DNA of 64,000 bases from the IMG/VR virus record IMGVR_UViG_3300031857_000027. One strand, written 5' to 3'. Numbering within the stretch: the first letter of the stretch is position 1; every line of letters begins with the position of its first letter. The position numbers and the translations under genes are program-made. Shown piece by piece: positions 7,032 through 35,284 of this stretch. The DNA is from a virus. The notes under the pieces are model-generated. The model was not told the origin of the DNA, did not search any database, and worked only from the letters and a program-made list of their open reading frames with translations.

Positions 7032-7039
7032 TATTTAGA
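7032..7039 (-). promoter_or_regulatory. T4-type late promoter candidate (TCTAAATA)
   Basis: Variant of gp55 consensus TATAAATA just upstream of the 7013 start. Confidence 0.5.
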
Positions 7040-20108: not shown

Positions 20109-20130
20109 GAGGCTGCCCGAAAGCAGCCTC
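20109..20130 (-). terminator. stem-loop GAGGCTGC-N6-GCAGCCTC
   Basis: Perfect 8-bp GC-rich stem between genes; weak U-tract. Confidence 0.6.
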
Positions 20131-20138
20131 TATTTCAA

Positions 20139-20717
20139 TTAAGCGTCAGGTGCGATAGCGTCATCGGATGCATCACCTTCCATTGAACCCATTGCTACTA
20201 GAGTTTCAAATGTGGTACGACCGTTACGACCGCCCATTGTAAAGGTGAATGCTGTGTTACCGAATGTGTTTGCTGTTGGTGTACCTGTGTACAAACCAGC
20301 GTTCGTAACTGTGACTGCTGTAATCCTACCAGTAGCAGCCGTTGTTACACTGACTTGTGCAGAGGTATTGTTTGTACCACCACCAGACAATATCAGTGTA
20401 TATGTGCAGGCTGTTGCTGCTGGACCTACAGCATTAGTATTTGCTGCGACCGAATCAATTCCACCTGCGCCTTTTGTACGTGCTACCCAACCAGCGTGTG
20501 TTGGTGTACCGTCAGTGATTAGACCTTCTTCTGTCGTATCAATACCAAATACACCAAACTCTACGTTAGTACGAGTGGCACTCATATATGTGTTGCCAAA
20601 TACTGATGAAGGCTGTGAATTAGCCAGGCTTTCACCAGTAGTTGATGTATCATAGCCAGTCAGACCTGAAAAGTTTGGAGCATTGTTAGATGCGTCTACA
20701 TTTCCCCAAAGTGACAT
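20139..20717 (-). CDS. putative virion structural protein
   Basis: MSLWG, HAGWV and ETLVAM motifs; late promoter upstream. Confidence 0.6.
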   Translation of the reverse strand: MSLWGNVDASNNAPNFSGLTGYDTSTTGESLANSQPSSVFGNTYMSATRTNVEFGVFGIDTTEEGLITDGTPTHAGWVARTKGAGGIDSVAANTNAVGPAATACTYTLILSGGGTNNTSAQVSVTTAATGRITAVTVTNAGLYTGTPTANTFGNTAFTFTMGGRNGRTTFETLVAMGSMEGDASDDAIAPDA

Positions 20718-20745
20718 GTTTTTCTCCTATAAATCTTTGATTAGT

Positions 20746-20753
20746 TATTTATG
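20746..20753 (-). promoter_or_regulatory. late promoter candidate (CATAAATA)
   Basis: 7/8 match to TATAAATA upstream of the 20717 start. Confidence 0.6.
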
Positions 20754-22368
20754 TTTTCTGTATATCGCTAGACAATTCGGGGTCTTTTTGAAACTTATCC
20801 GATGCCTGTTCTTGTTCTTGTTTTTTGCCCTTTGCGGCATCTCTAACAATCTGAGCCTTGCGTGATAGAGTTCTTGCTGCTGCGCTTGGATCGTCAGTGT
20901 TTTCACTCACAGACTTCCAACCACCACCCATTTCTTTGTATTTCTTCGCAGCCCAACCGTTAGCATATGCTGAAGGATATACATCAAACTTAGATTTTGC
21001 TTGTGCTTTAGCCTGCGCCCACTTCTCAGGTGATGTAGGCACATTCTTTTCTTCAAGATATTCAACATCTTCACCCATTGCTCTTTTTTGACTCTGTGTG
21101 TATTTTCTTTGTTTAACTGGTGACATAGATGCCATTGAAGCCTTTTTTCTGTCTCTTTCTACTGCACTATGATAACCACTTCTCAATCTAACTGCCTGAC
21201 CCAGATGTTCATCACCCGCTTCATCATGTCCTTTTGATCTGGCGTCTTTTCCTTTTTTTGTGGCTATTTTTGCAGCACGATCCAAAAGTGCAGGCGAAAG
21301 TTCATCAAGTTGTTCAGTCTCTTCTTTGACATGACCATACTTCTTTTTGTACCAGTCGGGCATACCACTCTTTTGACGGAAGTATCTTACTGTTGCAGAA
21401 TCGTTTGCTTGATCACGATATTTGTTTTCTGCTGTTGTATTATGGCTCTTCATTGCTTCTGCTGCTTTATGGGCATCTTTGGCAATATATTCCAATTCAG
21501 CATTCGTCTTCTTATGATACTCATGACCTTCTAGTGGATGGCGCTGTGATGGGCGACCTTCAGTGAGTTCAACTTCTTCTTTGTTGTATTTCTTTTTTAA
21601 ATACTTATCAACCTTGCGTTCGTATTCACCTTTTGGTTTCTTAGGAACAGGAGTGCCGTGTGGTGAAGGAACATATCGTTTAACTTCTTCATTCAGTTCA
21701 CCACGCAGATAGTTGGCTGCTGTAGAGATATAATCTTCAGCAAGTGTAATCTTTGATTGAACCCATTCTGGCAGATTTGTGTTTTCTTCCATCAAGTCCA
21801 TCATGTCTTGTGCATTGAACATCAGTGAACGAATTTGTGACATCGCCATATCACCTTCATAATCATACTCACGTGCATCTTTTGCTTCTTTAATTGGTGT
21901 AACAATCGTAGAAGACTTATATGGTTTTTTAACTGGTCCAGACACAAATCGTCCTTTCTTTTCTAATTGTTCATCAATCTCTGTTTCTTCAGAAACTCTT
22001 GATGCTTTCATGATACCACGAATCAGTGGTGCTTTGAGTTGCTTGTGTCTTGGAACAGCAATGTGTTCTTTTGACTTTGGATGCCCATATACATCATGGC
22101 CACCACCTGTGCGTTTCAATGTCCAACCTGATTTGCGAAGATGAGCATGAACATCACGTGTCTTCATGCTTGACTCTGGCATCTCATCAAGTTGTTCAAC
22201 TTCTTCCACTTTATATTTCTTTTTGATTTCAGATTGCTTCGCAAGTCTTTCTTTATCGTCAGAAATACCGTAAGAATGACCCAACTCTTTGTAATAGTCG
22301 GGATGTGGTAGTCCCGACTTCTTACGCAGAGCCATTTGTCGTTGATGTAATTTATCTGCGACTGACAT
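20749..22368 (-). CDS. modular putative internal head polyprotein containing a HicA-like toxin domain (22000-22167)
   Basis: Modules split by EEVEQLDE, EETEIDE, EEVELTE, EETEQLDE and EDVEYLEE; HicA pattern MKTRDV...L..SGW...R.GGGH..Y.HP......VP.H..L...L.R.IMK. Confidence 0.75.
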   Translation of the reverse strand: MSVADKLHQRQMALRKKSGLPHPDYYKELGHSYGISDDKERLAKQSEIKKKYKVEEVEQLDEMPESSMKTRDVHAHLRKSGWTLKRTGGGHDVYGHPKSKEHIAVPRHKQLKAPLIRGIMKASRVSEETEIDEQLEKKGRFVSGPVKKPYKSSTIVTPIKEAKDAREYDYEGDMAMSQIRSLMFNAQDMMDLMEENTNLPEWVQSKITLAEDYISTAANYLRGELNEEVKRYVPSPHGTPVPKKPKGEYERKVDKYLKKKYNKEEVELTEGRPSQRHPLEGHEYHKKTNAELEYIAKDAHKAAEAMKSHNTTAENKYRDQANDSATVRYFRQKSGMPDWYKKKYGHVKEETEQLDELSPALLDRAAKIATKKGKDARSKGHDEAGDEHLGQAVRLRSGYHSAVERDRKKASMASMSPVKQRKYTQSQKRAMGEDVEYLEEKNVPTSPEKWAQAKAQAKSKFDVYPSAYANGWAAKKYKEMGGGWKSVSENTDDPSAAARTLSRKAQIVRDAAKGKKQEQEQASDKFQKDPELSSDIQKT

Positions 22369-22370
22369 GA

Positions 22371-23519
22371 TTAGTCCTTCTTGGCCATTTTCGTTGCAGT
22401 TGCATACATTACCGACTTAGCACGTTCACCATAACGCTGTTTGAAACCAGAAAGACCTTTCTTCATACCCATTACGTAATCTTCTTTCTTCTTGGCTTCA
22501 CCTTTTGTTAGTTCACGTTCTTCAATTTGCTGAACACTTTCTGGCATTTCTTTTACACCAGTTGTCTTACCTGCTGCAACTTTTGGTTGTTTCTTTTTGC
22601 CTTCAAAACTTGCTTTTTGGTCTTCATACTCTTTTGTGAACTCATCGTTTGTTGGTTCTTCTGACAACGATTCTTCTTTACGAAGTTTGCTCATTACTTC
22701 GCCAGCCTTTTGTTGTTTTTGTGCTTGATATGCTCTCTCTTTTGAGATAACATCCTTTACCACACCAGCAGCACCTTTTGCAACATCCATAATACCTTCT
22801 TCAATTTCTGTTGCAACAACGCCGTTTACTTTATCTGCATCAATAACTTCAATCATTCTACCATCAATATCCATCTCTTCTGTTTCAATTGGTGCTAACA
22901 CTTTCAGACCATGCTCATTGTACAGTTCAAGCATCTCTGTGAATGATGTTGATTCGTTCACACGTGTTGAACGCTTAAAGTTTTGACGGGCACCATAGCC
23001 ACCCTTTTTCTTCGGTGCATCATCTTCATCATTGTCATCTTTGTAGTCACGCTTGTGAACTAGACCTTTTGCTGTCTTTGTGACTGAGCCATGTTCTGTT
23101 TTACCAGCATCCATGCGCTTCTTTGCATCTGCTACAGTTGGAAATGCTTCGTTCAGTTGCTCTTGTTCAGTTGCTTCAACTTCTTCGTTCTTTTTGCCAT
23201 AGAAGTTATCTTTGTACATGCGTGATGTTGCCTTACGCAGACCTTTTGTGCGATCTTTTGTCTTGTCGGCAATTGCTTTGGTCACATATGAACCAAGTGC
23301 TTTTCTGCCCGCTGGTGTATCACCAACTTCATCTAATTGCTCAACTTCTTCTTTCTTCATATCTTTTTTAGCACGTAGAAGTTTGAAGTCGTGAGCATCA
23401 ACTTTGCCATTTTTGTTGGCATCAATTTTATGCTGATTGCCTTTTAGTTGTTCTTGTTGTAGAACCTTTGCTGCTGCTTCTGCTACACTTTTCAGTGCTT
23501 TGTCATTGAAAATTGACAT
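22371..23519 (-). CDS. modular putative internal head protein
   Basis: EEVEQLDE, EQLNE, EIEE and QIEE linkers; EF-hand-like DANKNGKVDAHD; C-terminal RYG.RAKSVMYATATK. Confidence 0.65.
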   Translation of the reverse strand: MSIFNDKALKSVAEAAAKVLQQEQLKGNQHKIDANKNGKVDAHDFKLLRAKKDMKKEEVEQLDEVGDTPAGRKALGSYVTKAIADKTKDRTKGLRKATSRMYKDNFYGKKNEEVEATEQEQLNEAFPTVADAKKRMDAGKTEHGSVTKTAKGLVHKRDYKDDNDEDDAPKKKGGYGARQNFKRSTRVNESTSFTEMLELYNEHGLKVLAPIETEEMDIDGRMIEVIDADKVNGVVATEIEEGIMDVAKGAAGVVKDVISKERAYQAQKQQKAGEVMSKLRKEESLSEEPTNDEFTKEYEDQKASFEGKKKQPKVAAGKTTGVKEMPESVQQIEERELTKGEAKKKEDYVMGMKKGLSGFKQRYGERAKSVMYATATKMAKKD

Positions 23520-23544
23520 TTTAGTTCTCCTGATTTAGTTTTTG

Positions 23545-24855
23545 TTATCTTGTGACTTCTTCCCAATCCATCGATGCGTAGATATCAGAACCATTAACTG
23601 ATGCTGCCACGCATAATGTGAGTTCGAAGGGTGTATTGGTCAATCCATTTCTTTCTAATTGAAATTTGAATAGTGCTTCTCTAAGAATATCCACTGGTAT
23701 AGAACTTTGTGTAGTAGAAGTTGTAAAGCCCGATGCTAATATTCTTCCACCTGAAATTGTTGCGGCATCTAATTTATATTCAACAGCAGAATTAACTCCT
23801 GCACTTTCCCATGTTCCACCTGTTGTTGTACCACCCGCCCTGAGTTGCCAGTTATAATATGAGTTGTTAGTTAATGCTAATAAAGATAGTGCAGTAATAA
23901 TGACAATCGCATCTAATCTATCCGATTTCAATCTCAAAGAAATGAGATTATAATATGTTCCAGCAACGGCCAAATCAATTGGGCTAGTAACTGGTGTGCC
24001 TATGGCTTGCTGCGATCCAAGCAATTCATATCCACCTTCAGATATAACGGACGAGCAAATCTGTTTGAGTGTGGAATTACTTGCTGTAATACCTGTGTTC
24101 TTGATTTCATAACGCAACGGTAAAGATGCCGTTGTCATATAAGGAACAGTATTCCTATTGTCATTGTGAAATATGTGGGCAGGAACCATTTTACCATCAA
24201 CCACAAATCCACAGCGAACATCACCAACACCCAACCACTCAACATCCATCCAAAGAATATTTGTCTTACTTACATCAATGCCACCAGCATGTTCAGCACC
24301 ACCACTTTGAGATGAATAACCCGTACCGTCAAACTTGTCTATATTCCAATCTGTTTGTGCAACTTTTGTTTCTGTAATTGTTCCTGTTGTATTACTTCTT
24401 AGCACAAAATAGTTTGTTGTACCCTCATTCTCAAAATAGATACCGTTTTCGGCGCCATAATAACCAACTCTCTGACGAACATTTGCTTTAGGTGTTTCCA
24501 TAGCAAATGACGACATCATTAACAAAGACTTACCTGGTTGATATGAAAACACTCTTGTTGTTTCACGAATGACTTCAGCATTTGCTGTAGTTCCCACAGT
24601 CATCACAATCATACTTTGATTGTTTACAAAAGCATATGAACTATTTCCTGCTGTATTTGATGTTGACCACAGTCCGTTATCAGCAAAGCGATGTGTACTA
24701 TCAAAAAGAGTAAATGGTTGTGATAGACGAAGACGACCAAACGCATCTGTGATTGTACCAGATGGCGTAAGACGATCAGACATCATATTCACCTCATAAC
24801 GAGTGAATACTTGTCCTGAATCTATCTTATGTAAGTCGGTTCTAAACTGTGCCAC
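23545..24855 (-). CDS. putative virion structural protein (beta-rich)
   Basis: GTG start; DAFGRLR.S.P.TLFD and EWLGVG motifs. Confidence 0.6.
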   Translation of the reverse strand: MAQFRTDLHKIDSGQVFTRYEVNMMSDRLTPSGTITDAFGRLRLSQPFTLFDSTHRFADNGLWSTSNTAGNSSYAFVNNQSMIVMTVGTTANAEVIRETTRVFSYQPGKSLLMMSSFAMETPKANVRQRVGYYGAENGIYFENEGTTNYFVLRSNTTGTITETKVAQTDWNIDKFDGTGYSSQSGGAEHAGGIDVSKTNILWMDVEWLGVGDVRCGFVVDGKMVPAHIFHNDNRNTVPYMTTASLPLRYEIKNTGITASNSTLKQICSSVISEGGYELLGSQQAIGTPVTSPIDLAVAGTYYNLISLRLKSDRLDAIVIITALSLLALTNNSYYNWQLRAGGTTTGGTWESAGVNSAVEYKLDAATISGGRILASGFTTSTTQSSIPVDILREALFKFQLERNGLTNTPFELTLCVAASVNGSDIYASMDWEEVTR

Positions 24856-25350
24856 TTAGCAGTTCCACTTTCTCAATGCTTTATTAATACGTGAATCTGG
24901 ATCACGTGCTGTCTTTGCTGATGTTAGTCTACGCTTCATCCCACCCATTCTGGCGCAAAATGACTTACGACGATTTGCTGCCTTAGAACCTGCTTTTAGT
25001 TTACTTGGTTTCGTTGTCACAGCAGTTTGTAATTTTGAACCAGGATTTTCACGACGATATGACTCAACACCTTTTTGATTCAAACCACCTTCTGGATTTT
25101 TACCTTCTTTACGCTGCCATGCTGCAACTTCTTCTAATTGTTCTTCTGTAAGTGGACCATCATCGGCTTCATAATCTTCTTTTTTTAACTTCATCATCTT
25201 CGGCTTTGTGAATACAGGATTATCTGCACCACCAGCACCACCTTCTCTCTCTTCTCTTACGCATGAGCCTTTTGCATATGCTTTTTTACCCGGCGCTGGT
25301 TTATATCCAGGCCAACATCTTTCATCCATCAGTTGTTTGAATGATTTCAT
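24856..25350 (-). CDS. modular basic protein with CTS-like N-terminus (DUF6321-like C-terminal domain)
   Basis: MKSFKQLMDE; CWPGY; EQLEE linker; GGLN.KG...RRKSFCARM...LRKWNC. Confidence 0.65.
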   Translation of the reverse strand: MKSFKQLMDERCWPGYKPAPGKKAYAKGSCVREEREGGAGGADNPVFTKPKMMKLKKEDYEADDGPLTEEQLEEVAAWQRKEGKNPEGGLNQKGVESYRRENPGSKLQTAVTTKPSKLKAGSKAANRRKSFCARMGGMKRRLTSAKTARDPDSRINKALRKWNC

Positions 25351-28049
25351 ACGTAGTTTCTCTTTTTAAATGTTATAAGTGAGATACCTTTTTTCTTCAA
25401 TTCATCTTCTTTTTGATCACCAATTGATGCTGTCGTTTCATCACCAGTAAGTTCACTAATATTCTTAGGCACAACTTGTGTTGCTTTACCCTTTTTACTC
25501 AACTTCTCACCCATGTCTCTAGCAGGAGATTCACCAGCACCTGCCATTGAAATACCAGGTTCAATGCCTCTGTCAATCTCAGAAATTATTTCTCTTTCTT
25601 CGGCTTTCTTCTGGAAGTTTTCTTTGATGGTGGCAAGGCTGATGGTTCTTCTTCCTTCGGCAACGGGTTTGTCAAGGGCTGGTCGTTCTTTTCTTCCAGT
25701 ACCGGTTCTAACCTTACCGAGTTGTTGGGCTGACGGGGTGGAACTATTCTGTCCATAAAGTGCTTCAATCGCAGAATGATCAGGTGAATGTATTTCATGC
25801 AAGTCCTCTTTTAATTTAACAACGTATCTGTTACCAACTTTTGCTACTGTGCCATTTTTTTGGTGTGCTTCTTTTGCTGCTGAACCACGAATGTAAAACA
25901 ATCTTGTCTTACCGTTCTTGTCTGTCAATAACTTCTGTTTCTTTTGCGTTTCTTCAAACTGTTTACCAATTAACTTTGTGCCAGAAACATGTTGAATCAT
26001 TTTCCATGCTTCTTTGTGATTCTTGTTCGCAAGATGTTCTTTGAATTTTTTCTTCTGTTCTGGTGTAGCCTTCTGATGAAACTTCATGACTTCCATCATG
26101 CCAATGTTACCTTCATATGCCGCTTCACTGATCTTACCTTTGCCATAGTTTGAAACATTGATTGGCTCACCCTTGCGTTCTGGATTAGGATCATGGCGGC
26201 GTTTTGAAGCCACGGCAGCAGCACGTTCTTTCTTAGATAGTGATGCTCTCTTTTCGTTTGACATACATTTTGGTTTTGCTTCACCTGGTTCTCTGGCGCA
26301 AGGACCAATTGCTTCACCTTTGCTATTGATGCGCTTCCAGCCACCTTCTGGATCAGTTTTACTAAACCACTTACGTAAATCTTCTTTAATCATACCTCTA
26401 CCTAATGTCAGTAGATTGTAAGCACCAGCATCAGACATTGTGTTTACTTCTTCTTCCTCTGTCATCTCTTCTTCATCTGACTTGAGCAAACGAAGTGTGC
26501 GTGTGACTTCTTCTACTGTATCACCTGTAACTGATACTGTGACTGCTTCATTCATCTTGGCCATTTTGTTTTGATGTGTCTCAACAGTCTTTGCAATTTT
26601 CTCTACCGGCACTAAACTACCATGCACTGAACGATGTGTAACTTTGCCGTCTTTACCATAACGGCCAAAGCCATAATACTCTAGACCCATCTTGGACATA
26701 TCTTCATGTGTGCCAGCATCGGCATGTGGTTTCATATCAGTACGAATCGGTGCAGTATCTTTCTTACCCAACTCTGTAGCAATCCAACCTTTTGCCAAAT
26801 CATTCTTCGGTGGCTTGCCGACGAACTTTTGCATGTTTTTAAAAATGCCATCAAGTTCTTTTGTCTTTGCTTCTACAACTTCCGGTGCTGCTGTACGCAA
26901 ATCTTCTGAATTATCAAACTCAACATAGTTGTCACGAAATAGTTTACCAAACATTGGTCGTGCTGCTTGTACAGATTCCCATTTCTCTTTACGAATGTCT
27001 TCTGGCACTGTACGACCACCACGTTGACCACGTTCAATGTTTCTTTCTTTTGATACTTCGTCTGCTGTATTGACCATGACCATGGATGTTTCATAGCCTA
27101 ACTTCTCAAGCATCTCTTTGATCTTGGCATACTTTTCTGGATCATCACCAGTACCATTGATGATCAATCCATTACGACCATGAAGTGCTAAACGTTGACG
27201 CAATTCTGTAACGTTCTTTGCTCTTTTACGAACAGCATTACGTTGTGATTCTTCATTCTCTGGCATCTTCTTATCAAGGTTTTCTTTGTCCATCAGATAC
27301 TCAAGTGCTTTATCAGAATTGATTTCTGTTAGACCATGACCATCTAGTGTCTTGCTTAACACATAGTCTTTGCCTGAACCAGGACCACCACCTAGAAATA
27401 CTGCTTTGAAAATACCTTTGTCGTGTACACCCTCACGAATGATTTCTTCGTGAAGTCTCATACCTTTACGTACATCATTGAACATTTGCTTGACATGAGC
27501 ATGAGACATTGATGATGGTGCGCCTTTCTTGAATGAATCAAGATCGCCACTCTTTGCGTGTTCACGCATTTTAGAAGCAGAAATGCCAGTTACACCTTCA
27601 GCATCAGGATCACGTTCACCTGCTGAGTGTACTTTGATTTCTTTGAAGTTGAAACGGGCACCTTCATGTGTGCCATTGTACTTGTGTAGCAGTCTGTGAT
27701 ATTCTTCTGTGCGGTCAGAACCACCAACCATGTGAAGATGTGTTACACCCTTCTTGTGTAATGCTTCGGCATGGTCAAAGAATGTTGGTTTTTCTTTAGA
27801 TGCTGCTGTGAAATTCGTGCCAGAAAATGCTCTCTTGGCATGTTTGACTTTTTGATCTGCTGTAAGGGGATTCTTCTTGGCGTCCTGTGAATGTGACAGA
27901 ACGATATGATGTGAGCCGCCAACTTTATCGGCGATCTCTTTGACTTTATTGACTAGTTTTTCGTGACCGTTTGTAATCGGATTCATGCGACCAAATGCTA
28001 GGACGGCATGTTTCTCTTTCTGTTCACGTAGAAAATCTCTAAATTTCAT
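25347..28049 (-). CDS. 900-aa multidomain protein: cytidyltransferase-like (HIGH) domain, zeta-toxin-like P-loop kinase and several small modules
   Basis: FGRMNPITNGH, GSDR, ISASKMR; GGPGSGKD, NSD, INGTG, RGGR.VP; N-terminus MKFRDFLRE. Confidence 0.8.
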   Translation of the reverse strand: MKFRDFLREQKEKHAVLAFGRMNPITNGHEKLVNKVKEIADKVGGSHHIVLSHSQDAKKNPLTADQKVKHAKRAFSGTNFTAASKEKPTFFDHAEALHKKGVTHLHMVGGSDRTEEYHRLLHKYNGTHEGARFNFKEIKVHSAGERDPDAEGVTGISASKMREHAKSGDLDSFKKGAPSSMSHAHVKQMFNDVRKGMRLHEEIIREGVHDKGIFKAVFLGGGPGSGKDYVLSKTLDGHGLTEINSDKALEYLMDKENLDKKMPENEESQRNAVRKRAKNVTELRQRLALHGRNGLIINGTGDDPEKYAKIKEMLEKLGYETSMVMVNTADEVSKERNIERGQRGGRTVPEDIRKEKWESVQAARPMFGKLFRDNYVEFDNSEDLRTAAPEVVEAKTKELDGIFKNMQKFVGKPPKNDLAKGWIATELGKKDTAPIRTDMKPHADAGTHEDMSKMGLEYYGFGRYGKDGKVTHRSVHGSLVPVEKIAKTVETHQNKMAKMNEAVTVSVTGDTVEEVTRTLRLLKSDEEEMTEEEEVNTMSDAGAYNLLTLGRGMIKEDLRKWFSKTDPEGGWKRINSKGEAIGPCAREPGEAKPKCMSNEKRASLSKKERAAAVASKRRHDPNPERKGEPINVSNYGKGKISEAAYEGNIGMMEVMKFHQKATPEQKKKFKEHLANKNHKEAWKMIQHVSGTKLIGKQFEETQKKQKLLTDKNGKTRLFYIRGSAAKEAHQKNGTVAKVGNRYVVKLKEDLHEIHSPDHSAIEALYGQNSSTPSAQQLGKVRTGTGRKERPALDKPVAEGRRTISLATIKENFQKKAEEREIISEIDRGIEPGISMAGAGESPARDMGEKLSKKGKATQVVPKNISELTGDETTASIGDQKEDELKKKGISLITFKKRNYV

Positions 28050-28081
28050 AATCCCTCTACCTCTGCGGCAGTTGTTTCTGT

Positions 28082-28096
28082 TATTTAGTATTTAGT
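28082..28096 (-). promoter_or_regulatory. tandem late promoter candidates (ACTAAATA twice)
   Basis: Two overlapping copies upstream of the 28049 start. Confidence 0.6.
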
Positions 28097-28799
28097 AAAC
28101 TTCTAGCGTGTTTGTGGTGGCCACGGTCCCTTGACAATGAATTTGATCCAATTCAACTAGAATTTCTTTGTTTAGCACAAGAAAGTGAGCATGTTCCGTG
28201 TCAATTCTAGTCTGATTTGTTACCGTAATGATTTGTCGTAAAGATTCTAGATAATTGTCTATCAAAGACGGACAGAAAGAATACATTCTGGTAATAAGAA
28301 GATTTGTTGCAAACTCCTTACGACTGTCGGTTAACCATGTTGGTATTCTTTTCTTGAACACATATTTACCAAAGTGATCATGTTCGTGAATATCAAAAGA
28401 ATTCAACAAATCTGTTCTACCTGACAATTTAAAGACTCTATTTACAGACAACATAATCTTGGCCAGATGTGGTTCTTGTTTTAGAAGCAGAAGAGTTTTC
28501 ATCAATAAAGTGCTTTCAGCCTCACTTTTGCGATGATTAACTGCAAATGTACTAATCATTTCATCACTGGAAAAGTCGGCTACAAAATCAACACAGTCTG
28601 AAATGATTTTGATTTTTTCTTCTTCAACTTTGTGTGGTGAACCATCAACGAATAAAACAATAGCGTCAGGTACTTTTTCTCTTAATAATTGTAATCCGTC
28701 TATAGTTTGTTCTAATCGTTCTTCACGTTTAATTTCACCCATGTCTGTGTTGAGTGCTGAAGTTACAATAAAAAGTTTGCGATCAGGTATCAGTGCCAT
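28092..28799 (-). CDS. putative glycosyltransferase-like protein
   Basis: FIVTSA, R.EQT, FKLSGR pattern; sugar cluster context. Confidence 0.5.
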   Translation of the reverse strand: MALIPDRKLFIVTSALNTDMGEIKREERLEQTIDGLQLLREKVPDAIVLFVDGSPHKVEEEKIKIISDCVDFVADFSSDEMISTFAVNHRKSEAESTLLMKTLLLLKQEPHLAKIMLSVNRVFKLSGRTDLLNSFDIHEHDHFGKYVFKKRIPTWLTDSRKEFATNLLITRMYSFCPSLIDNYLESLRQIITVTNQTRIDTEHAHFLVLNKEILVELDQIHCQGTVATTNTLEVY

Positions 28800-29464
28800 T
28801 CAAACTCCGAAAATAATTTAATTGTTTTGTATGTTGCTTTAGAATTCAATACATGAACTATTGTGTTAGTAATTTCCTTTGTATCTAACATTTTATCTTT
28901 AGAAGTATGTTTATCTTGCATTGGTGTTTTGATACCACCAGGATGAATACTTGTCACACGAATCTCATTCATTTGTGTATGCAGTTCAGAGCCCAACGCA
29001 CCAGCAAATGCAGTAATAGCATGTTTAGATGCCGAGTAAACTGCTTCCCATTCCATCTCTTTAAGACCTGCTACAGAGTTAATGAAGATAATATTACTAC
29101 CTTTGTTCATTAACTTGAGTGCTTGCAGTGTCACATACATTGTGCCTTTAACGTTCAAATCAATAATTTGATCTATCTTTTCAACTGTAAAATAACTTTT
29201 GAAACGCCCCCACTCATATATACCCGCATTGTTTACAAGCACATCAATGTATGTGCCAATTCTTTCAAATGCGGCTTTAACTTGATCTGACTTTGAGATA
29301 TCACATTCTATCCACTGAAATGTATCCGGTGCAGAAAATAGTTTTACTGGTGGTTTTGTGCGTGAAAGACCATACACGAAATAACCTTCATCAATCAGCC
29401 TATCTGCAATATCATGGCCAAGGCCATAACTACATCCTGTAACCACGGCAACTTTACGCATCAC
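28790..29464 (-). CDS. SDR family oxidoreductase
   Basis: TGCSYGLG, VNNAG, YSASK and PGG motifs. Confidence 0.92.
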   Translation of the reverse strand: MMRKVAVVTGCSYGLGHDIADRLIDEGYFVYGLSRTKPPVKLFSAPDTFQWIECDISKSDQVKAAFERIGTYIDVLVNNAGIYEWGRFKSYFTVEKIDQIIDLNVKGTMYVTLQALKLMNKGSNIIFINSVAGLKEMEWEAVYSASKHAITAFAGALGSELHTQMNEIRVTSIHPGGIKTPMQDKHTSKDKMLDTKEITNTIVHVLNSKATYKTIKLFSEFEWH

Positions 29465-30597
29465 ATCTCCTCAAAAACATCAATCGCAAGTTTCATTTCA
29501 TCTTCAGTAACATCATTCACAATCTTATAGTTACCAATTGCAATAGGCAGTGGTGCATATTGATTGCCGTTACGGTGTTTAGTTGCATCACGTAGACTCT
29601 CCAACAAATACTTCATATTGGTAAAGTCTTTATGAAATGTTTTCAGTTTCAATCTTTTTGCAACACCAAAGATTCGTTTCAATTGAACTGTGTCAATGTA
29701 GCCACGAATGAATGAGATACACGAACTATACAAACAATCTAATGCTACTGCTTCACCATGCAACAACTCTGGTATATTAGACATCTCAATTACAGGACTG
29801 AATGTGTGACCAAAATCTACGCAACGGTCTAATCGTTTTTCCCATAGATTCGGTCCAAGTTCTGCAATCATGTCTGTGATAGCAAGATTGATTACACGAA
29901 CTGGCACCGCACCATATTGAAACTTTTCATCAATCAGTATCTCTGCATTCTCTTCTAGCAGATGAAAAAGTTCTGGTGATTTGATAACTGCAAGTTTGAA
30001 TATTTCTGCAATGCCATTTACAATCTCACGTTCACTTTGCGTCTTGATAAACTTTTTATCAATGTATGTTGCAAGTGGTGGATAGTACGCACCGATACGA
30101 TTGCGTCTGCCTAGATGATTGACTCCAACTTTAGAGCCTACAGAAGCGTCAACGATGGCAAGAAGTGTTGTGGGAATTTTAACGTAGGGAATTCCACGAC
30201 GGTATATGCTACAAGCAAAGCCAACAATGTCCAGCAGAACACCTCCGCCAATTGCGATAATAGGTTCACGGCGTAACACTCCATATTGTTCAAAAAAGTC
30301 CAAAATACGATCAACATTTTTCCAATTCTTATTTTCTTCTTTGCAGTCTACGCAAAGTATTTTACAACTCAACTTGACTGCACCAAAATATGCTGCGATA
30401 CTATCTTTGTATAAATCATGTACTTCAGAATCAATCACGATAATTCTACGCTCACTATTCGTGATGTTTACAATATCTTGATTGCTTGGGCTAAAGATGT
30501 CAGCAGAGTATGTAAGTTTGAATTCTACTGGTAGTTCTGTTTTAACTGACCAAGTTCGTTTGAACTTGTCATAATCCATCATAAAGTCTAAACTCAT
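29461..30597 (-). CDS. sedoheptulose-7-phosphate cyclase (2-epi-5-epi-valiolone synthase-like; DHQS superfamily)
   Basis: GGGVLLD, PTTLLAIVDA, EL.PNLWE...R.VDFGHTFSP, HGEAV; lacks the AroB LNLGHTFGHAIE motif. Confidence 0.85.
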   Translation of the reverse strand: MSLDFMMDYDKFKRTWSVKTELPVEFKLTYSADIFSPSNQDIVNITNSERRIIVIDSEVHDLYKDSIAAYFGAVKLSCKILCVDCKEENKNWKNVDRILDFFEQYGVLRREPIIAIGGGVLLDIVGFACSIYRRGIPYVKIPTTLLAIVDASVGSKVGVNHLGRRNRIGAYYPPLATYIDKKFIKTQSEREIVNGIAEIFKLAVIKSPELFHLLEENAEILIDEKFQYGAVPVRVINLAITDMIAELGPNLWEKRLDRCVDFGHTFSPVIEMSNIPELLHGEAVALDCLYSSCISFIRGYIDTVQLKRIFGVAKRLKLKTFHKDFTNMKYLLESLRDATKHRNGNQYAPLPIAIGNYKIVNDVTEDEMKLAIDVFEEM

Positions 30598-31547
30598 TTC
30601 ATCGCCTTACTAAACAATTTACATGCATGAACATAAAAATACTTGGCTTTGTTGATATCACCCGCAATCAACTTAAATGGTAGCATACGAATGAACTGTG
30701 ATGCTTCTAGTATATCTATGAGTTTCATTTTATCTTCTGGCAACTCAGAGATAAAGTGTTTGTTGAACGTGTCAAAGTGTTCTGTGCCGCCATGAGGATT
30801 GAACAGATCAATTCCTATAACACGAACATCACGGTCGTTGATGAAACCATAGTGACTACGTGAACACTGAAGCACTTGTGCATAATCAAGATACTTGGTG
30901 TTCCACATACTTTCATCATATGTATCAATAAAAACTACACGATCTTCTTCAAATGAATACATGATGTTTTCAAGTGTGGGATTACCATGAATATTACACT
31001 CATCATCGTTTTCCAATTCTGCAAAGTATTCTTGCAAAACTTGAAGATAACCACCAATACCTACAATAAGGTCTCCGTTGAAACCATATGTGCCACGATA
31101 AAAGAAGTCTTTGAATGATGGCAGACTTATTGCATCAGCAATCTTCTGATCAATCTCTTCATCAAAATAAAGTCTTGGCGCACCAGGAATAGGTTCTTTT
31201 TTAATTGAATGAAGAGTATTCAAACCTTTCCAAACCGCTTGGCTCATTCTGAAGATTTGATCTTCACTCAATATGTCTTTGCTGAGAATGCTTTTGATGT
31301 CACGAAAACCTTCAAGGTATTCTAAATCAAACCATGCAGTTGTTTTGTTTGAATCTACATTCACAACTTTAGGAAACAAGCCAGGATATAGTGTATTGTA
31401 TTCTTGTAATTTCTTTAACTGAGAATACCAACGCATAAAACCATATTCACGATTTTCTATGCGTGAAATTTCTTTACGAACGATCTTCTCATCTGGTAGC
31501 CAGTAAGTTCTACTGAGTGAGCCACCTTTCAATGATATAGTTTTCAT
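30594..31547 (-). CDS. APH/choline-kinase-like phosphotransferase
   Basis: GGS glycine loop, VRK, HGNPTLENI (HGD-type loop with Asn), FID. Confidence 0.7.
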   Translation of the reverse strand: MKTISLKGGSLSRTYWLPDEKIVRKEISRIENREYGFMRWYSQLKKLQEYNTLYPGLFPKVVNVDSNKTTAWFDLEYLEGFRDIKSILSKDILSEDQIFRMSQAVWKGLNTLHSIKKEPIPGAPRLYFDEEIDQKIADAISLPSFKDFFYRGTYGFNGDLIVGIGGYLQVLQEYFAELENDDECNIHGNPTLENIMYSFEEDRVVFIDTYDESMWNTKYLDYAQVLQCSRSHYGFINDRDVRVIGIDLFNPHGGTEHFDTFNKHFISELPEDKMKLIDILEASQFIRMLPFKLIAGDINKAKYFYVHACKLFSKAMK

Positions 31548-32275
31548 TTTGCACCTAATGTTTGCCTTGCTATCTCAATTCCGTATTCTTGAGGACTGCC
31601 TAAAACAATCGTTTCTTGGTTACTACCAAGAGGATTCATGAATACTTGTTTATTAGATTGTATCATACTTTGTATCACATCTGCAATATATAATTCACCA
31701 TCTTTTTCGGCTAACTTGTTATAATATTCTAGATAAAGATGACCCGTCAGGAAACCATAGAAGCCTGATGATGCATACGGTGAGATTTGTTTCTTTTCTA
31801 CAATTTCAATTACCGTATTTTCAAATGCACGAACATAAGAATACTTTGGTGAGTTGCCCACAAAAACATCAATATATGCATCATGCTTTGCGGTTAAGTC
31901 ATCAGCAATAAAATCTATACGACGACCTTTAATAATTGTATCTGCATTGTGTACGAACGTTGGTAAATATTTGTTGTTCAGTTGTTCAATACCAATTGCT
32001 GCTGTGTGTGCTTGGCCTTTTGTGTCACCAATGTATAGAATATTGCTTTCATTCCAACCAAGTGGTTTGATTGCTTCAACAAGTTGATCTTTGAAATAAA
32101 TGTCTCTTTTATTGGCCACAAGAATCAGTTGTGTAACCCAACCAAGATTCTTCAAAATATCATATATGATTGTCTTGTCATTCCAAGGCAAAAGATATTT
32201 TGGTATGTCAAAGCCAACATCATGAAAACGGGTGTTATATCCCGCCATACAGATTATGAGATTCATTTCAACCAT
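31544..32275 (-). CDS. NTP transferase (sugar-1-phosphate nucleotidyltransferase-like)
   Basis: MAG...RF...PKYL, TKGQA.T, EKKQIS and LGSP motifs. Confidence 0.85.
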   Translation of the reverse strand: MVEMNLIICMAGYNTRFHDVGFDIPKYLLPWNDKTIIYDILKNLGWVTQLILVANKRDIYFKDQLVEAIKPLGWNESNILYIGDTKGQAHTAAIGIEQLNNKYLPTFVHNADTIIKGRRIDFIADDLTAKHDAYIDVFVGNSPKYSYVRAFENTVIEIVEKKQISPYASSGFYGFLTGHLYLEYYNKLAEKDGELYIADVIQSMIQSNKQVFMNPLGSNQETIVLGSPQEYGIEIARQTLGAK

Positions 32276-32976
32276 TCTTCCATATCATTTCGTAACAGTG
32301 AATGCCATGTGCCATTATACTCACCAGGTGAGAATGGATGATTGACATCACAGTATACTAGATTTTCACCAACAAGACCGTATCGTTTCCAGTTGGCACT
32401 CATAAAGTCTTCCATCATGAACTGCACACCATTATTGTAGAATTCATCATAGTGTTGATATGCATATGAATACTTGTCCATGTTTTCTGAGGATGAAAAC
32501 GCAAACTGATCATTACCAAAATCACGATTAGGTGACATACGACAGTTTGGAATGTATAGTTTGTTCGGATTCAATGTGTCAAAAGGAATACGAGCATTAA
32601 TTGCAAAATCAAACCGTGAACGAACAACCCAATCAAACTTCATGTTGTGATATTCTTCATACTCACGCTTTGTACGCATACATTCGTAAATTGCAAACAT
32701 CTGCGCCCATGTTGACATGCGACCATCTTTAACTTTCCAGTTTGGTGATGGTGGCGGTGTGTTTGTGTATTTTGATAAATCAATTGTGGGATTTGGTGAT
32801 GTGATGAAACTATGTGCATTATATTTCTCTGAAATATTTTGCATTTCTTCTGCTGGCATTTCCCACGAATGCAGAAACACAGTTACATCGTTGTTTTTGA
32901 TAATGTTTAGATTGTGATACTCAAAGCCTTTTTCCCACATTCTTGGTTGGCCAGAGATACAGAGTGCTATCTTCAT
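32263..32976 (-). CDS. putative glycosyltransferase-like protein
   Basis: KIALCISGQPR, F.HSW, D.VVRSRFD and NDQFA pattern. Confidence 0.55.
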   Translation of the reverse strand: MKIALCISGQPRMWEKGFEYHNLNIIKNNDVTVFLHSWEMPAEEMQNISEKYNAHSFITSPNPTIDLSKYTNTPPPSPNWKVKDGRMSTWAQMFAIYECMRTKREYEEYHNMKFDWVVRSRFDFAINARIPFDTLNPNKLYIPNCRMSPNRDFGNDQFAFSSSENMDKYSYAYQHYDEFYNNGVQFMMEDFMSANWKRYGLVGENLVYCDVNHPFSPGEYNGTWHSLLRNDMEEWLK

Positions 32977-33665
32977 AGGTCACGCCCCACATTTGCTTTG
33001 TTGTCTGTAATGCCGAATGTCTTCAGTTGTTCTTTTTCCATCACGACCATGCTGTTATAGAATGATACAGAATAAAGATTGTTATACACCGCAAGTGCTT
33101 CATCAGAAATTGGTGAGCCTTGAAAGTGTTGTTGATTCACAATATCTGTCACACGCTTACAGTGTTCAGTAAATGTGCCAGCACCACGGAATACACCACC
33201 CCATGGCTGTGGCCAATAACTTGTGTGAGTGTCTTCACAAATATAAACACCACCCTCTTTGATGTGTGTAAATACACTGTTCAATGTAGTGATTTGATGA
33301 TTCATTACATGAGAGCCGTCATCAATCACAATATCAAAATTGTTTTGTGTTTTCAAGAATTCTGACCAGAAGGCAGCGTCACCTTGGTCACCCATCACAA
33401 CTTTAACATCACCGTTGTATTCATATTTCAAACACTCTTCATTGATATCAACTGCCACAACTGAAGTATCAGGACCAAAATACTTTAGCCACATTTCAAT
33501 TGAACCACCACCAAGCACACCGATTTCTAAGATGCGTGGTGCTTTACCTACAAACTTCTTTAGGTGTCTTTCATAAACATCAAAGTAACCTGACCATTTT
33601 GTAGATGGCTTTTCTAAGTCCCAAAATAATTCTTTAATTCTATTTGTCGTCATATTTTGCCTCAA
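32973..33665 (-). CDS. class I SAM-dependent (sugar O-)methyltransferase
   Basis: ILEIGV..GGS, GDQ, IDDGSH and GGVYICED motifs. Confidence 0.85.
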   Translation of the reverse strand: MRQNMTTNRIKELFWDLEKPSTKWSGYFDVYERHLKKFVGKAPRILEIGVLGGGSIEMWLKYFGPDTSVVAVDINEECLKYEYNGDVKVVMGDQGDAAFWSEFLKTQNNFDIVIDDGSHVMNHQITTLNSVFTHIKEGGVYICEDTHTSYWPQPWGGVFRGAGTFTEHCKRVTDIVNQQHFQGSPISDEALAVYNNLYSVSFYNSMVVMEKEQLKTFGITDNKANVGRDL

Positions 33666-34482
33666 TCACTTTCTTCCATTCTGGCACACGATCATACTGA
33701 TGTACAATAGTATACTCTATTCCTGTTGAAGTTACAACCTTGTCACCTTCTAATTTCGGTGATGGTTCTAAAAGATGTGGTCTGAATTGATCAATCTTAC
33801 TTGGATCGGCAGTTGTGCCAAGTTGACATGCCCAACCATATTCTGACTGAGTGTACATTGACGAATCAATATATGGGTGTCTTGAAATCATTACATTGAA
33901 TACTGCTTGATCAACGATTGGTATTGGTCTGTTGATGCAGTTTAGAAACAACTGCAAAGTCAAATCCCTCATTGCATAACCACGACCAGCAAGAACACCG
34001 ACATTAAAGATCGTGTTGTTCTTAAAATCTTCGTAGATGCCTTGACCATAACACTGTGTTAGATTCTCACGACCCCATGGCTCATCTTTATATTTCATGC
34101 TTTCGGAAGAAAATACCAAATCTTCTTGTTTGGATAGATTTTCTTCTAACCATGTAACAGGGTTCTTTTGAAAGATAACATCTCGTACATCTGTGGTAAT
34201 TACATAACGATAGTCATTATCTTTGAGCAGTTTGTAAATGTGAATGAAACGCTCAACATGCACCATCAGTTGAGACTGATAAGTTAGATTGCCGTCTTTG
34301 TCTTGATTGAACGCTATGATTGAGAAGCCTGCGTCAGTTACCTTCTGTGCAGTTTCTTTATCGCAGTTCATGAGAATCAGAACTTTATCACCCTCAAAGC
34401 CTGATTCATTGATGGAATTAATCCAATATTTTAATTTTGCCCAGTCATAATTTGTTGAGCATCCCACGATCACATCTTTCAT
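33640..34482 (-). CDS. putative glycosyltransferase (GT-A)
   Basis: TDVRDVIFQ.NP, NVGV, DQAVFN and VHQYDR motifs. Confidence 0.7.
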   Translation of the reverse strand: MKDVIVGCSTNYDWAKLKYWINSINESGFEGDKVLILMNCDKETAQKVTDAGFSIIAFNQDKDGNLTYQSQLMVHVERFIHIYKLLKDNDYRYVITTDVRDVIFQKNPVTWLEENLSKQEDLVFSSESMKYKDEPWGRENLTQCYGQGIYEDFKNNTIFNVGVLAGRGYAMRDLTLQLFLNCINRPIPIVDQAVFNVMISRHPYIDSSMYTQSEYGWACQLGTTADPSKIDQFRPHLLEPSPKLEGDKVVTSTGIEYTIVHQYDRVPEWKKVIEAKYDDK

Positions 34483-34497
34483 AATATCTCCAGTGAT

Positions 34498-34683
34498 TTA
34501 TTTTATGTCAGTTTCTTTCCAACTTCCTGTAAACTTTTTATATTGTTGTGTGCTTTGACCAGGAGTGTCATCAAGATATTTAGCAGTGAGTTCAGGTCTT
34601 CCCCACTCACCTCCGCCGGCCTTAGATACAAACTCTTGTCTGCTGTCTTTGTTTGCCTTTAAATAATCTTTGAATGTTTTCAT
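34498..34683 (-). CDS. small protein with CTS-like N-terminus (61 aa)
   Basis: Starts MKTFKDYLK at an ATGA overlap; G.GEWG...L...Y..DTPGQ. Confidence 0.6.
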   Translation of the reverse strand: MKTFKDYLKANKDSRQEFVSKAGGGEWGRPELTAKYLDDTPGQSTQQYKKFTGSWKETDIK

Positions 34684-35003
34684 ATCGTGAATGAAGAACC
34701 GCAACCACACGTTGCAGTTACGTTTGGATTTTTGATTGTAAATGAAGCACCCATCATATCTTCTTTATAATCAATCACCGCTTCATTCATGTATTGCATA
34801 CTCATACTATCTATAACAACTCCAATACCATCTCTTTCAAATGTAAAGTCATCATCTGCTGCCGGCAATTCTTCTATTGAGAAGCCATATTGGAAACCAG
34901 AACAACCACCACCCTGAACGAACACACGTAGTTTGAGTGAAGGGTCTTCTTCAGCAATGATAGATTTAATTTTCTTTACAGCAGTGTCAGATATTGTAAC
35001 CAT
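34680..35003 (-). CDS. erpA: iron-sulfur cluster insertion protein (A-type carrier)
   Basis: GGGCSGFQY and NPN....CGCGSSF motifs. Confidence 0.9.
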   Translation of the reverse strand: MVTISDTAVKKIKSIIAEEDPSLKLRVFVQGGGCSGFQYGFSIEELPAADDDFTFERDGIGVVIDSMSMQYMNEAVIDYKEDMMGASFTIKNPNVTATCGCGSSFTI

Positions 35004-35284
35004 TATCCCCTCGTCAATTGCAATACTTTTTGCATTTGTTTCTCAATAATTGGACCACGATTTGGCCAATGAATGTATGGTTGACTTGCTGTCTTGTACA
35101 GATTTGTCAGAAATGGCATAATGATCTTTTCTACTTGCTGAAGTCTTGCTTTATACTCTTCAACAGTTTCATCTTTCTCCGCAATGACTGCTTGATATTC
35201 AACTTCATCAACTGTGCTGAAACCAAAATCATCATCACCATACTCTGCTAAAATTTTATTGATGTCGTAACTCATTTGTCCCAT
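35003..35284 (-). CDS. hypothetical protein
   Basis: DFGFS...PFL.NL...YIHWPNR pattern. Confidence 0.6.
   Translation of the reverse strand: MGQMSYDINKILAEYGDDDFGFSTVDEVEYQAVIAEKDETVEEYKARLQQVEKIIMPFLTNLYKTASQPYIHWPNRGPIIEKQMQKVLQLTRG

Follow-up and report, generated by a model that had tools for sequence, protein, structure and literature searches.

A candidate head-cargo polyprotein that joins a HIGH-superfamily nucleotidyltransferase to a zeta/PNK-clade kinase in an uncultured T4-like phage

The stretch of DNA analyzed here (the window, 64,000 nucleotides of the IMG/VR virus record IMGVR_UViG_3300031857_000027) contains on its minus strand, at positions 25347-28049, an open reading frame (ORF) of 900 amino acids (aa) with its ATG at position 28049 and its stop codon at 25347-25349. 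No ORF was found on the plus strand of the same region. A preliminary description made from the sequence had read the product as a HIGH-family nucleotidyltransferase fused to a P-loop kinase and followed by small modules, in a protein bearing a capsid-targeting sequence (CTS), and the ORF and all of the quoted motifs are indeed present on the minus strand. The virus record that holds the window spans 133 kb and is estimated to be 75% complete, its large genes all lie on one strand, and its gene content includes ribonucleotide reductase, ThyX, a primase, and a lysin. Because the same record encodes a gp21-type prohead protease (Peptidase_S77, 122 bits) and a gp23 capsid protein (Gp23, 474 bits), it was attributed to an uncultured T4-like phage. 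A megablast search of the region against cultured phages returned no match, whereas about 15 studies of lake and freshwater metagenomes yielded near-identical copies of the gene.

In T4, the first 10 residues of the internal protein IPIII (MKTYQEFIAE) are sufficient for loading proteins into the head (PMC8442874); residues 4 and 7 of the CTS are important in targeting, residues 8 and 10 in cleavage, and the gp21 protease cleaves after the Glu of L/I-x-E (PMC9026906). The N terminus of the 900-aa protein, MKFRDFLRE, shows the same pattern, with hydrophobic or aromatic residues at T4 positions 4 and 7, L/I at position 8, and Glu at position 10. The leader, which agrees with the CTS named in the preliminary description, is a conserved element: it was kept in 119 of 120 close homologues, its P3 and P1 positions were each 0.99 conserved among 119 homologues, and CTS-like starts were found in only 3 of the 484 ORFs of the genome, i.e. 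in the 900-aa protein, in the adjacent DUF6321 protein, and in a DUF6267 protein. In the structural model, the leader had a predicted local distance difference test score (pLDDT) of 69, below that of the folded core. A candidate substrate of the phage's own gp21 is gp23, which has GILSE/T at the expected propeptide position (the slash marks the candidate cut here and below). Moreover, a 219-aa protein encoded next to gp21 on its upstream side (L003:9-668; G000:C1:17937-18596) begins with MKSLLEFKSIVE and is enriched in [LI]xE (z 3.2), and its sequence makes it a likely core or internal protein of the prohead that bears a CTS itself.

Relatives of the 900-aa protein have been detected in virions. 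Proteins annotated as "NMNAT-like/cytidylyltransferase" were reported in the mass spectrometry (MS) proteomes of purified T4-like cyanophage virions (PMC9602691, PMC9146016, PMC10665884), and two of those MS-detected proteins, S-CREM2 gp154 and S-SZBM1_140 (PMC10665884, PMC9146016), are homologues of the transferase over aa 14-215 (E 8e-23 and 2e-33, respectively) that start with the leaders MKNFSSFLTE and MRFRQFIIE. Although packaging, cleavage, and ejection of the 900-aa protein are all predictions drawn from sequence comparison, its packaging in the phage head appears quite probable.

The transferase carries FGRMNPITNGH at aa 19-29 and ISASKMR at aa 156-162. The presence of (H/T)xGH and ISxxxxR motifs on a Rossmann-like fold, together with a Pfam score above the gathering threshold (CTP_transf_like, 23.4 bits; cut-off 21), places it in the HIGH superfamily, and the PHROGs family named "cytidyltransferase" matched at 1.5e-62. 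Structure prediction and Foldseek comparison of both domains, which the preliminary description had recommended, gave confident models. That of the transferase (AlphaFold, pLDDT 93.0) showed lower confidence only at the first ~10 and the last 5 residues; NadD, phosphopantetheine adenylyltransferase (PPAT), and FAD synthetase were ranked alike, with domains of NadR and CoA synthase among the neighbours. The modelled fold appears nearest to nicotinamide mononucleotide adenylyltransferase (NMNAT) and PPAT rather than to cytidylyltransferases. Therefore, although the HIGH-type motifs behind the earlier cytidyltransferase-like reading of aa 1-200 stand, the usual label "cytidyltransferase" is probably a misnomer. 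A transferase-only profile run against Protein Data Bank sequences found no NMNAT or PPAT and gave only a weak motif match to MJ0951, and the nearest ESM Atlas clusters of the transferase were all viral. The ESM Atlas and BFVD searches gave uncharacterised viral relatives only and no lead on function. Judging from its model, the domain represents a phage-specific HIGH family of adenylyltransferase-like shape. Because no curated model matched and no solved relative was found by sequence, no substrate can be transferred to it from any known family, as had been anticipated. A second small CTP_transf_like gene located outside the window (L006; G000:C1:114804-115019; 149-aa frame) is far more canonical (58.8 bits), and its sequence suggests that it may encode a true cytidylyltransferase of a sugar or glycerol pathway.

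The kinase was found where it had been placed, from aa 207 after LHEEIIRE. It exceeded the gathering scores of both Zeta_toxin (PF06414, 50.5 bits; cut-off 22.3) and AAA_33 (PF13671, 43.1 bits; cut-off 27), with GGPGSGKD at aa 221-228, INGTG at 297-301, R340, and GGRTVP at 344-349, and it has the P-loop, a candidate catalytic Asp, and the lid arginines of the zeta family. Its AlphaFold model had a pLDDT of 93.5; zeta gave the best Foldseek E-value (9e-7), and AvrRxo1 and the corresponding domains of NadR and CoA synthase were among the fold neighbours. In an alignment of 119 diverse kinases, K227 was conserved in 118, D246 in 109, R336 in 118, R340 in 110, and R346 in 118, and the catalytic motifs are intact in both enzymes. 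The residue that follows the P-loop Lys in the Walker A motif (27366-27389, minus strand) is Asp in 91 of the 119 sequences, Ser in 26, and Thr in 1, which is unusual for P-loop kinases, and the domain holds a long helical insert at aa ~264-290. A nucleoside monophosphate (NMP) kinase was considered because the best solved phmmer matches were AK1 and UMP-CMP kinases, and it was rejected since the NMP-binding arginines (GxLLR, DGFPR) are missing in the alignment with these matches, the curated models fail, and the fold ranks lower. By sequence and model, the enzyme belongs to the zeta/PNK clade, and its most likely phosphate acceptor is a hydroxyl group; kinase sequence and fold do not distinguish the hydroxyl of a nucleotide sugar from that of a nucleic acid end.

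The boundaries of both enzymes are marked by candidate protease sites. LHEEIIRE occupies aa 199-206, and at the kinase boundary the 119 diverse kinases showed L/I/V (113), any residue, Glu (117), and Gly (101), a motif that was kept whatever lies upstream. In stand-alone kinases only a leader precedes this boundary, e.g. in Melnitz gp118 (MKTFAELQE/GVYD). The C-terminal end of the transferase bears a conserved (L/I/V)(H/K)E, and the long N-terminal extensions of other members end in ...L.E/A just ahead of the first strand of the transferase. Conserved sites with a variable middle residue were located outside the folded cores at E9, E201, E206, E556, E642, E752, E798, and E866; in ISE(866), P3 and P1 were each 0.97 conserved, and 8 different residues were found at P2. 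The L/I/V-x-Glu-Gly boundary has, as a sequence, the shape of a gp21 site, and these patterns lead us to lean, if only slightly, towards internal cleavage of the 900-aa protein.

The two enzymes are followed by at least six small tail modules (Table 1), in line with the five or more described earlier. An alignment of 18 close homologues revealed indels of whole modules, six close homologues carry an extra module of ~70 aa exactly between transferase and kinase, and single tail modules recur independently in other proteins. The last module (module g, aa 836-900) was matched by 25 representatives. Eight of these were inspected, and in each the match falls at the C terminus or no more than a few residues from it; five of these eight carriers are kinase-only proteins. 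By analogy with T4 Alt (PMC9026906), the C-terminal peptide may serve as a propeptide or an anchor at this end of the protein. In lake metagenomes, contig depth showed a roughly ten-fold peak at 26257-26347 (598 versus roughly 30-150 elsewhere, run X10), over the Cys-containing basic cassette, and contigs diverge near 26250-26258. The peak over this cassette suggests that it is common to many co-occurring phages. With two enzymes and at least six modules, and with genes for a virion structural protein and a HicA polyprotein beside it, the 900-aa protein has the features of a polyvalent protein, a type marked by two to fifteen unrelated conflict-type domains on a single phage polypeptide encoded near virion genes. 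A short Cys-x-W-x-G-Y-K...C module (CWPGYKPAPGKK..GSC) was noticed in the DUF6321 protein, in the MS-detected S-SZBM1_139 (L100:1489-2862), and in representative P0271, and by its sequence distribution it appears to be another travelling mini-module.

Table 1. Features of the gene for the 900-aa protein and of its surroundings (positions in the window)
Feature	Position	Strand	Remarks
DUF6267 ligase-like protein	35272-36495	-	leader MKFMDYIKE; 385 bits
Two tandem CTAAATA, possible late-type promoter	28082-28095	-	32-48 nt upstream of the ATG; suggestive only
Purine-rich ribosome-binding site, GAGG-type, gaggtagaggga	28052-28063	-	read from the sequence, ahead of the ATG
T4-type CTS-like leader MKFRDFLRE, aa 1-9	28023-28049	-	ends L-R-E; aligned with the T4 CTS MKTYQEFIAE with a one-residue gap
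HIGH-superfamily nucleotidyltransferase, aa 10-201	27447-28022	-	NMNAT/PPAT-like fold; TNGH and ISASKMR motifs
Linker, aa 202-206	27432-27446	-	between candidate protease sites LHE(201) and IRE(206)/G; site of the ~70-aa insertion in six homologues
P-loop hydroxyl-kinase, zeta/PNK (AAA_33) clade, aa 207-430	26760-27431	-	Walker A GGPGSGKD; candidate catalytic D246, R336, R340, R346
Beta-rich appendage (GLEYYGFGRYGK...), aa 431-501	26547-26759	-	travels with the kinase; after the kinase in 47 of 150 representatives
Acidic spacer module, aa 502-556	26382-26546	-	ends IKE(556); block absent in some close homologues, IKE kept wherever the module is present
Cys-containing basic cassette DLRKWF...GKGKISE, aa 557-642	26124-26381	-	6 representatives, E down to 1e-38
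Helical cassette AAYEGN...KQFEE, aa 643-700	25950-26123	-	present or absent among close homologues
Small basic module, aa 701-752	25794-25949	-	ends LKEDLHE(752); 13 representatives
Low-complexity and basic stretch, aa 753-866	25452-25793	-	conserved VAE(798), IKE(810), ISE(866)
Conserved C-terminal peptide (LTGDETTASIGDQKEDELKKKGISL...), aa 867-900	25350-25451	-	within module g (aa 836-900)
Co-oriented downstream block	20109-25350	-	probably one transcription unit, headed by the 900-aa gene
DUF6321 protein	24856-25350	-	downstream block
Virion structural protein phrog_1645	23545-24855	-	downstream block
382-aa K/E-rich protein, 539-aa HicA polyprotein (K/E-rich), 192-aa protein		-	downstream block, in this order, before the terminator
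Strong terminator	20109-20130	-	end of the downstream block

The family to which these two enzymes belong is large. A word-indexed search with aa 1-430 gave more than 4,200 protein matches, the best 120 of which were 69-100% identical over aa 1-430 with total lengths of 645-1019 aa, and an exhaustive search gave 5,594 representatives of clusters at 50% identity. Both domains are present in 91 of the best 150 representatives (in 90 of these in the order transferase to kinase), while 39 have only the kinase and 19 only the transferase, a sample that is biased to two-domain proteins, as the query carried both domains. The spacer between transferase and kinase varied from 0 to ~690 aa. Few cultured phages carry the kinase (HTVC008M, Melnitz, Atu_ph07, RsoM2USA); kinase and transferase are adjacent separate genes in reverse order in HTVC008M and lie 50 kb apart in Melnitz, and cyanophages have the transferase with an SH3-like module and no kinase. 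The separate genes, the transferase alone in cyanophages, and the variable spacers indicate separable modules rather than an obligate bifunctional unit.

The DUF6267 protein, the third in the genome with a CTS-like start, belongs to the same set of combinations. PHROG 455 covers both DUF6267 and the transferase, and long DUF6267 proteins (among P0281-P0309) are fused to the transferase, the kinase, an ADP-ribosyltransferase (PF03496), or DUF5824; transferase or kinase was found on 6 of 120 long DUF6267 proteins, in three different orders. Such few fusions of varying order point to a shared cargo chassis with swappable enzymes and not to a fixed pathway.

We propose that the 900-aa protein is a head-cargo precursor that is loaded by means of its leader, is then processed by the gp21-type protease, and leaves the head with the DNA, and we give this reading a probability of about 0.6. 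In the manner of the T4 CTS, the leader would attach the precursor to the scaffolding core while the prohead is assembled, and the protease would then cut after the Glu of accessible L/I-x-E motifs (E9, E201/E206, and several more in the tail, E866 among them); in T4, an Asp at P1 stops such cutting and leaves targeting intact. The expected products are an NMNAT/PPAT-like adenylyltransferase of ~192 aa, a zeta/PNK-clade kinase of ~295 aa with its beta-rich appendage, and several small basic peptides, all of which would remain beside the DNA inside the head until infection delivers them into the cell. Because this cargo would enter with the DNA, the enzymes could act ahead of any phage gene expression, the transferase adenylylating a phospho-compound such as nicotinamide mononucleotide (NMN) and the kinase phosphorylating a sugar hydroxyl on a nucleotide, in the manner of zeta, AvrRxo1, and dephospho-CoA kinase. 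The two modules would act independently and not as an obligate couple.

Nevertheless, several observations weigh against this proposal. As regards cleavage, [LI]xE is not enriched in the 900-aa protein (12 versus 9.4 expected from shuffles, z ~1), unlike in the scaffold gp22, the 219-aa putative core protein, and the HicA polyprotein; the E206-G207-V208-x-D210 element is near-invariant, is ordered in the model (pLDDT ~85), and persists in leaderless proteins, and L-x-E-G may be part of the kinase fold instead of, or besides, being a cut site. As regards packaging, about 30 of the 92 transferase proteins with a near-N-terminal domain lack the leader and start directly at the first strand, and the authors of the virion proteomes caution that abundant late proteins may co-purify (PMC10665884, PMC9602691). 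No exact T4 late promoter (TATAAATA) was found upstream of the 900-aa gene, and CTAAATA, observed 7 times in the window versus 9.4 expected, does not exceed chance and is weak promoter evidence. As regards the chemistry, none of the curated models for NMNAT (NadM/archaeal/NadR/NadD) or PPAT (CoaD) was reached, the top kinase folds include the RNA-acting enzymes PSTK, Pnk, and Pnkp1, and no Nampt, Nudix, or ADP-ribosyltransferase was found in the record, which is weak evidence as the genome is partial.

For the cargo enzymes, a small-molecule nucleotide chemistry of the NAD/CoA type is tentatively favoured, at somewhat below even odds, because the transferase is nearest to NMNAT/PPAT, because zeta and AvrRxo1 are among the kinase neighbours, and because the same chassis alternatively carries an ADP-ribosyltransferase. 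The functional guesses of the preliminary description hold in part: action on NAD or signalling nucleotides keeps this tentative standing, healing of RNA ends appears unlikely, and poisoning of cell-wall precursors keeps very little credit. A more specific version, which we regard as improbable, is that the head delivers a dinucleotide-cofactor unit in which the NMNAT-like enzyme rebuilds NAD-type dinucleotides and the AvrRxo1/zeta-like kinase phosphorylates their ribose hydroxyl, both within the first seconds of infection and ahead of phage transcription. Such a unit would weaken NAD-depleting or nucleotide-signalling immunity or yield a modified cofactor, and it would be a single choice from a large, shuffled repertoire of enzymes (transferase, kinase, ligase-like, ADP-ribosyltransferase, HicA) that aquatic T4-like phages tag with a CTS and release by their protease.

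An unlikely but not negligible alternative retains the same packaging and assigns the cargo to the healing of nucleic acid ends, so that a 5'-OH polynucleotide- or tRNA-directed kinase and DUF6267 would mend, upon entry, the tRNA or DNA ends left by host nucleases, much as T4 Pnk and Rnl1 counter PrrC, with the transferase in an accessory step. The RNA-acting enzymes among the top kinase folds agree with it. However, the 900-aa protein showed no domain of a healing phosphatase or cyclic phosphodiesterase, the acceptor-site Arg of T4 Pnk, three residues past the catalytic Asp (Asp-x-x-Arg), is not conserved across the 119 kinases, and DUF6267 gave no sequence match to solved structures or ligases. 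Furthermore, cyanophages retain DUF6267 and the transferase but have no kinase, the fusion orders vary as expected of independent cargo, and we know of no end-healing system with a HIGH-type transferase.

It is also conceivable, albeit improbable, that the protein is packaged and stays uncut internally, as a single "polyvalent" virion protein in which L/I-x-E-G belongs to the kinase fold and at most the leader is removed. Uncut polyvalent proteins are well documented (PMC5512222), E206, G207, and D210 are over-conserved for a degenerate protease site, and the persistence of these residues in leaderless proteins, the ordered boundary segment, and the lack of overall [LI]xE enrichment fit this alternative. 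On the other hand, P2 is fully variable while P3 and P1 are fixed, the transferase end likewise carries its (L/I/V)(H/K)E, modules are inserted exactly between the two sites, long leaders end in ...L.E/A before the transferase, and the same domains are also encoded by separate genes that add nothing but a leader, all of which argues for cleavage of a head-cargo precursor.

Still less probable is a late cytoplasmic enzyme pair, i.e. an auxiliary metabolic gene of the NadR/CoA-synthase type that adjusts host cofactor pools and whose leader likeness is coincidental. Fused HIGH-type transferases and P-loop kinases do exist (NadR and the PPAT-dephospho-CoA kinase CoA synthase, both in the fold lists), many family members are leaderless, and the co-purification caution cited above applies here. 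Nevertheless, the rarity of the leader in the genome and its retention in close homologues speak against coincidence, leader-bearing homologues were detected in two independent virion proteomes, the gene shares its block with that of a virion structural protein, a metabolic role offers no reason for the K/E-rich cassette tail, and no equivalog model for NadR, NMNAT, PPAT, or dephospho-CoA kinase was matched. Finally, it is very unlikely that the kinase is a true zeta toxin that blocks peptidoglycan synthesis by phosphorylating UDP-N-acetylglucosamine and so weakens or kills the host, even though zeta is its best match in both Pfam and Foldseek and INGTG and GGR.VP resemble zeta motifs. Antitoxin-like neighbours were not noticed in general scans of the nearby genes, which included no search aimed at antitoxins.

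The proposed cargo precursor combines traits of several known systems. Like T4 IPI, IPII, IPIII, and Alt, it has an N-terminal leader of ~10 residues with aromatic, aromatic, L/I, and Glu residues at the T4 positions, a gp21-type protease and gp23 are encoded in the same genome, and, as in T4, the cargo would be ejected with the DNA. Alt, which is trimmed at both ends (PMC9026906), is likewise an enzyme carried as cargo. T4 cargo proteins, however, are single-domain proteins with terminal propeptides, whereas here two enzymes, of other classes than those of T4, and at least six cassettes are joined with candidate internal cut sites. The cyanophage virion proteins of the "NMNAT-like/cytidylyltransferase" group (S-CREM2 gp154, S-SZBM1_140, S-SCSM1 ORF91, S-CBWM1) share the homologous transferase, the CTS-like leader, and DUF6267 as a neighbour, but they carry an SH3-like module and no kinase; their published accounts, as far as they were available, mention neither leader nor protease processing. 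NadR (NMNAT and ribosylnicotinamide kinase) and CoA synthase (PPAT and dephospho-CoA kinase) also unite a HIGH-type adenylyltransferase and a P-loop kinase in one polypeptide, the latter in the same order. The kinase differs from Zeta/PezT, AvrRxo1, and the T4 and bacterial polynucleotide kinases in its Walker A GKD (91 of 119), its helical insert, and the lack of a phosphatase domain.

The union of unrelated effector-type domains on one virion-delivered polypeptide and the shuffling of cassettes recall polyvalent proteins (PMC5512222), and prohead protease cuts after Glu are known from the ejection proteins of the giant phages phiKZ and SPN3US (PMC5694885), although the targeting device here is a T4-type CTS, unlike in those systems. 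Term searches of the polyvalent survey (Iyer et al. 2017, PMC5512222), zeta not being among the terms, gave no mention of NMNAT or HicA, and showed kinases of the Ser/Thr type and nucleotidyltransferases of the Pol-beta type. The CTS and gp21 device of T4 and the detection of transferase homologues in virions are already known. In the literature searched, we found no recognition that the cyanophage virion proteins bear a T4-type leader, no transferase-kinase polyprotein with boundary L/I-x-E motifs, and no account of the size of the family. Whereas the T4 CTS is known from a handful of small coliphage proteins, the family described here is common in lakes and oceans, which suggests that aquatic T4-like phages may pre-load whole enzymes as cleavable polyproteins swapped as cassettes. 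A T4-type loading tag would be a simple explanation for the repeated finding of "NMNAT-like/cytidylyltransferase" proteins in cyanophage virions. If the enzymes acted on NAD-type nucleotides or on broken RNA ends at entry, they would constitute a pre-expressed counter-defence that is invisible to gene-expression studies.

With regard to transcription of the gene, the RNA runs contained only two short metatranscriptome contigs, from which strand, level, and timing are not readable and in which DNA carry-over is possible. CTAAATA, which is reported to be the late-promoter variant of T4-like cyanophages, was found exclusively on the coding (minus) strand, at positions 7032, 9648, 28082, 28089, 34577, 47949, and 48509, and four of these seven copies are intergenic and upstream of gene starts. 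Downstream of the gene, synteny was compared in 80 related loci, only 42 of which are long enough; DUF6321 was found in 63, the 382-aa protein in 45, HicA in 44, and the 192-aa protein in 40, and the block was kept in nearly all of the loci long enough to show it.

On the upstream side, S-CAM9, Melnitz, and S-SZBM1 have the DUF6267 gene immediately ahead of that for the transferase; in HTVC008M, it is found two genes ahead of the kinase-transferase pair. In the window, a 6.4-kb carbasugar cassette (28092-34482) and a few small ORFs separate the DUF6267 gene from the 900-aa gene, and the cassette was present in 33 of the 74 related loci with enough upstream flank. Because DUF6267 abuts the transferase gene elsewhere, the carbasugar cassette looks inserted into an older conserved pair of cargo genes. 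In S-SZBM1, S-SZBM1_139 was considered as the DUF6267 protein and rejected, as it corresponds to the downstream K/A-rich neighbour; DUF6267 is S-SZBM1 gene 141, which the available text of the S-SZBM1 paper does not mention. Finally, a 107-aa ORF at 34680-35003 on the minus strand, whose PHROG matches are all of unknown function, ends in ...CGCGSSF, and its sequence looks like that of an A-type (IscA/HesB-like) iron-sulphur carrier.

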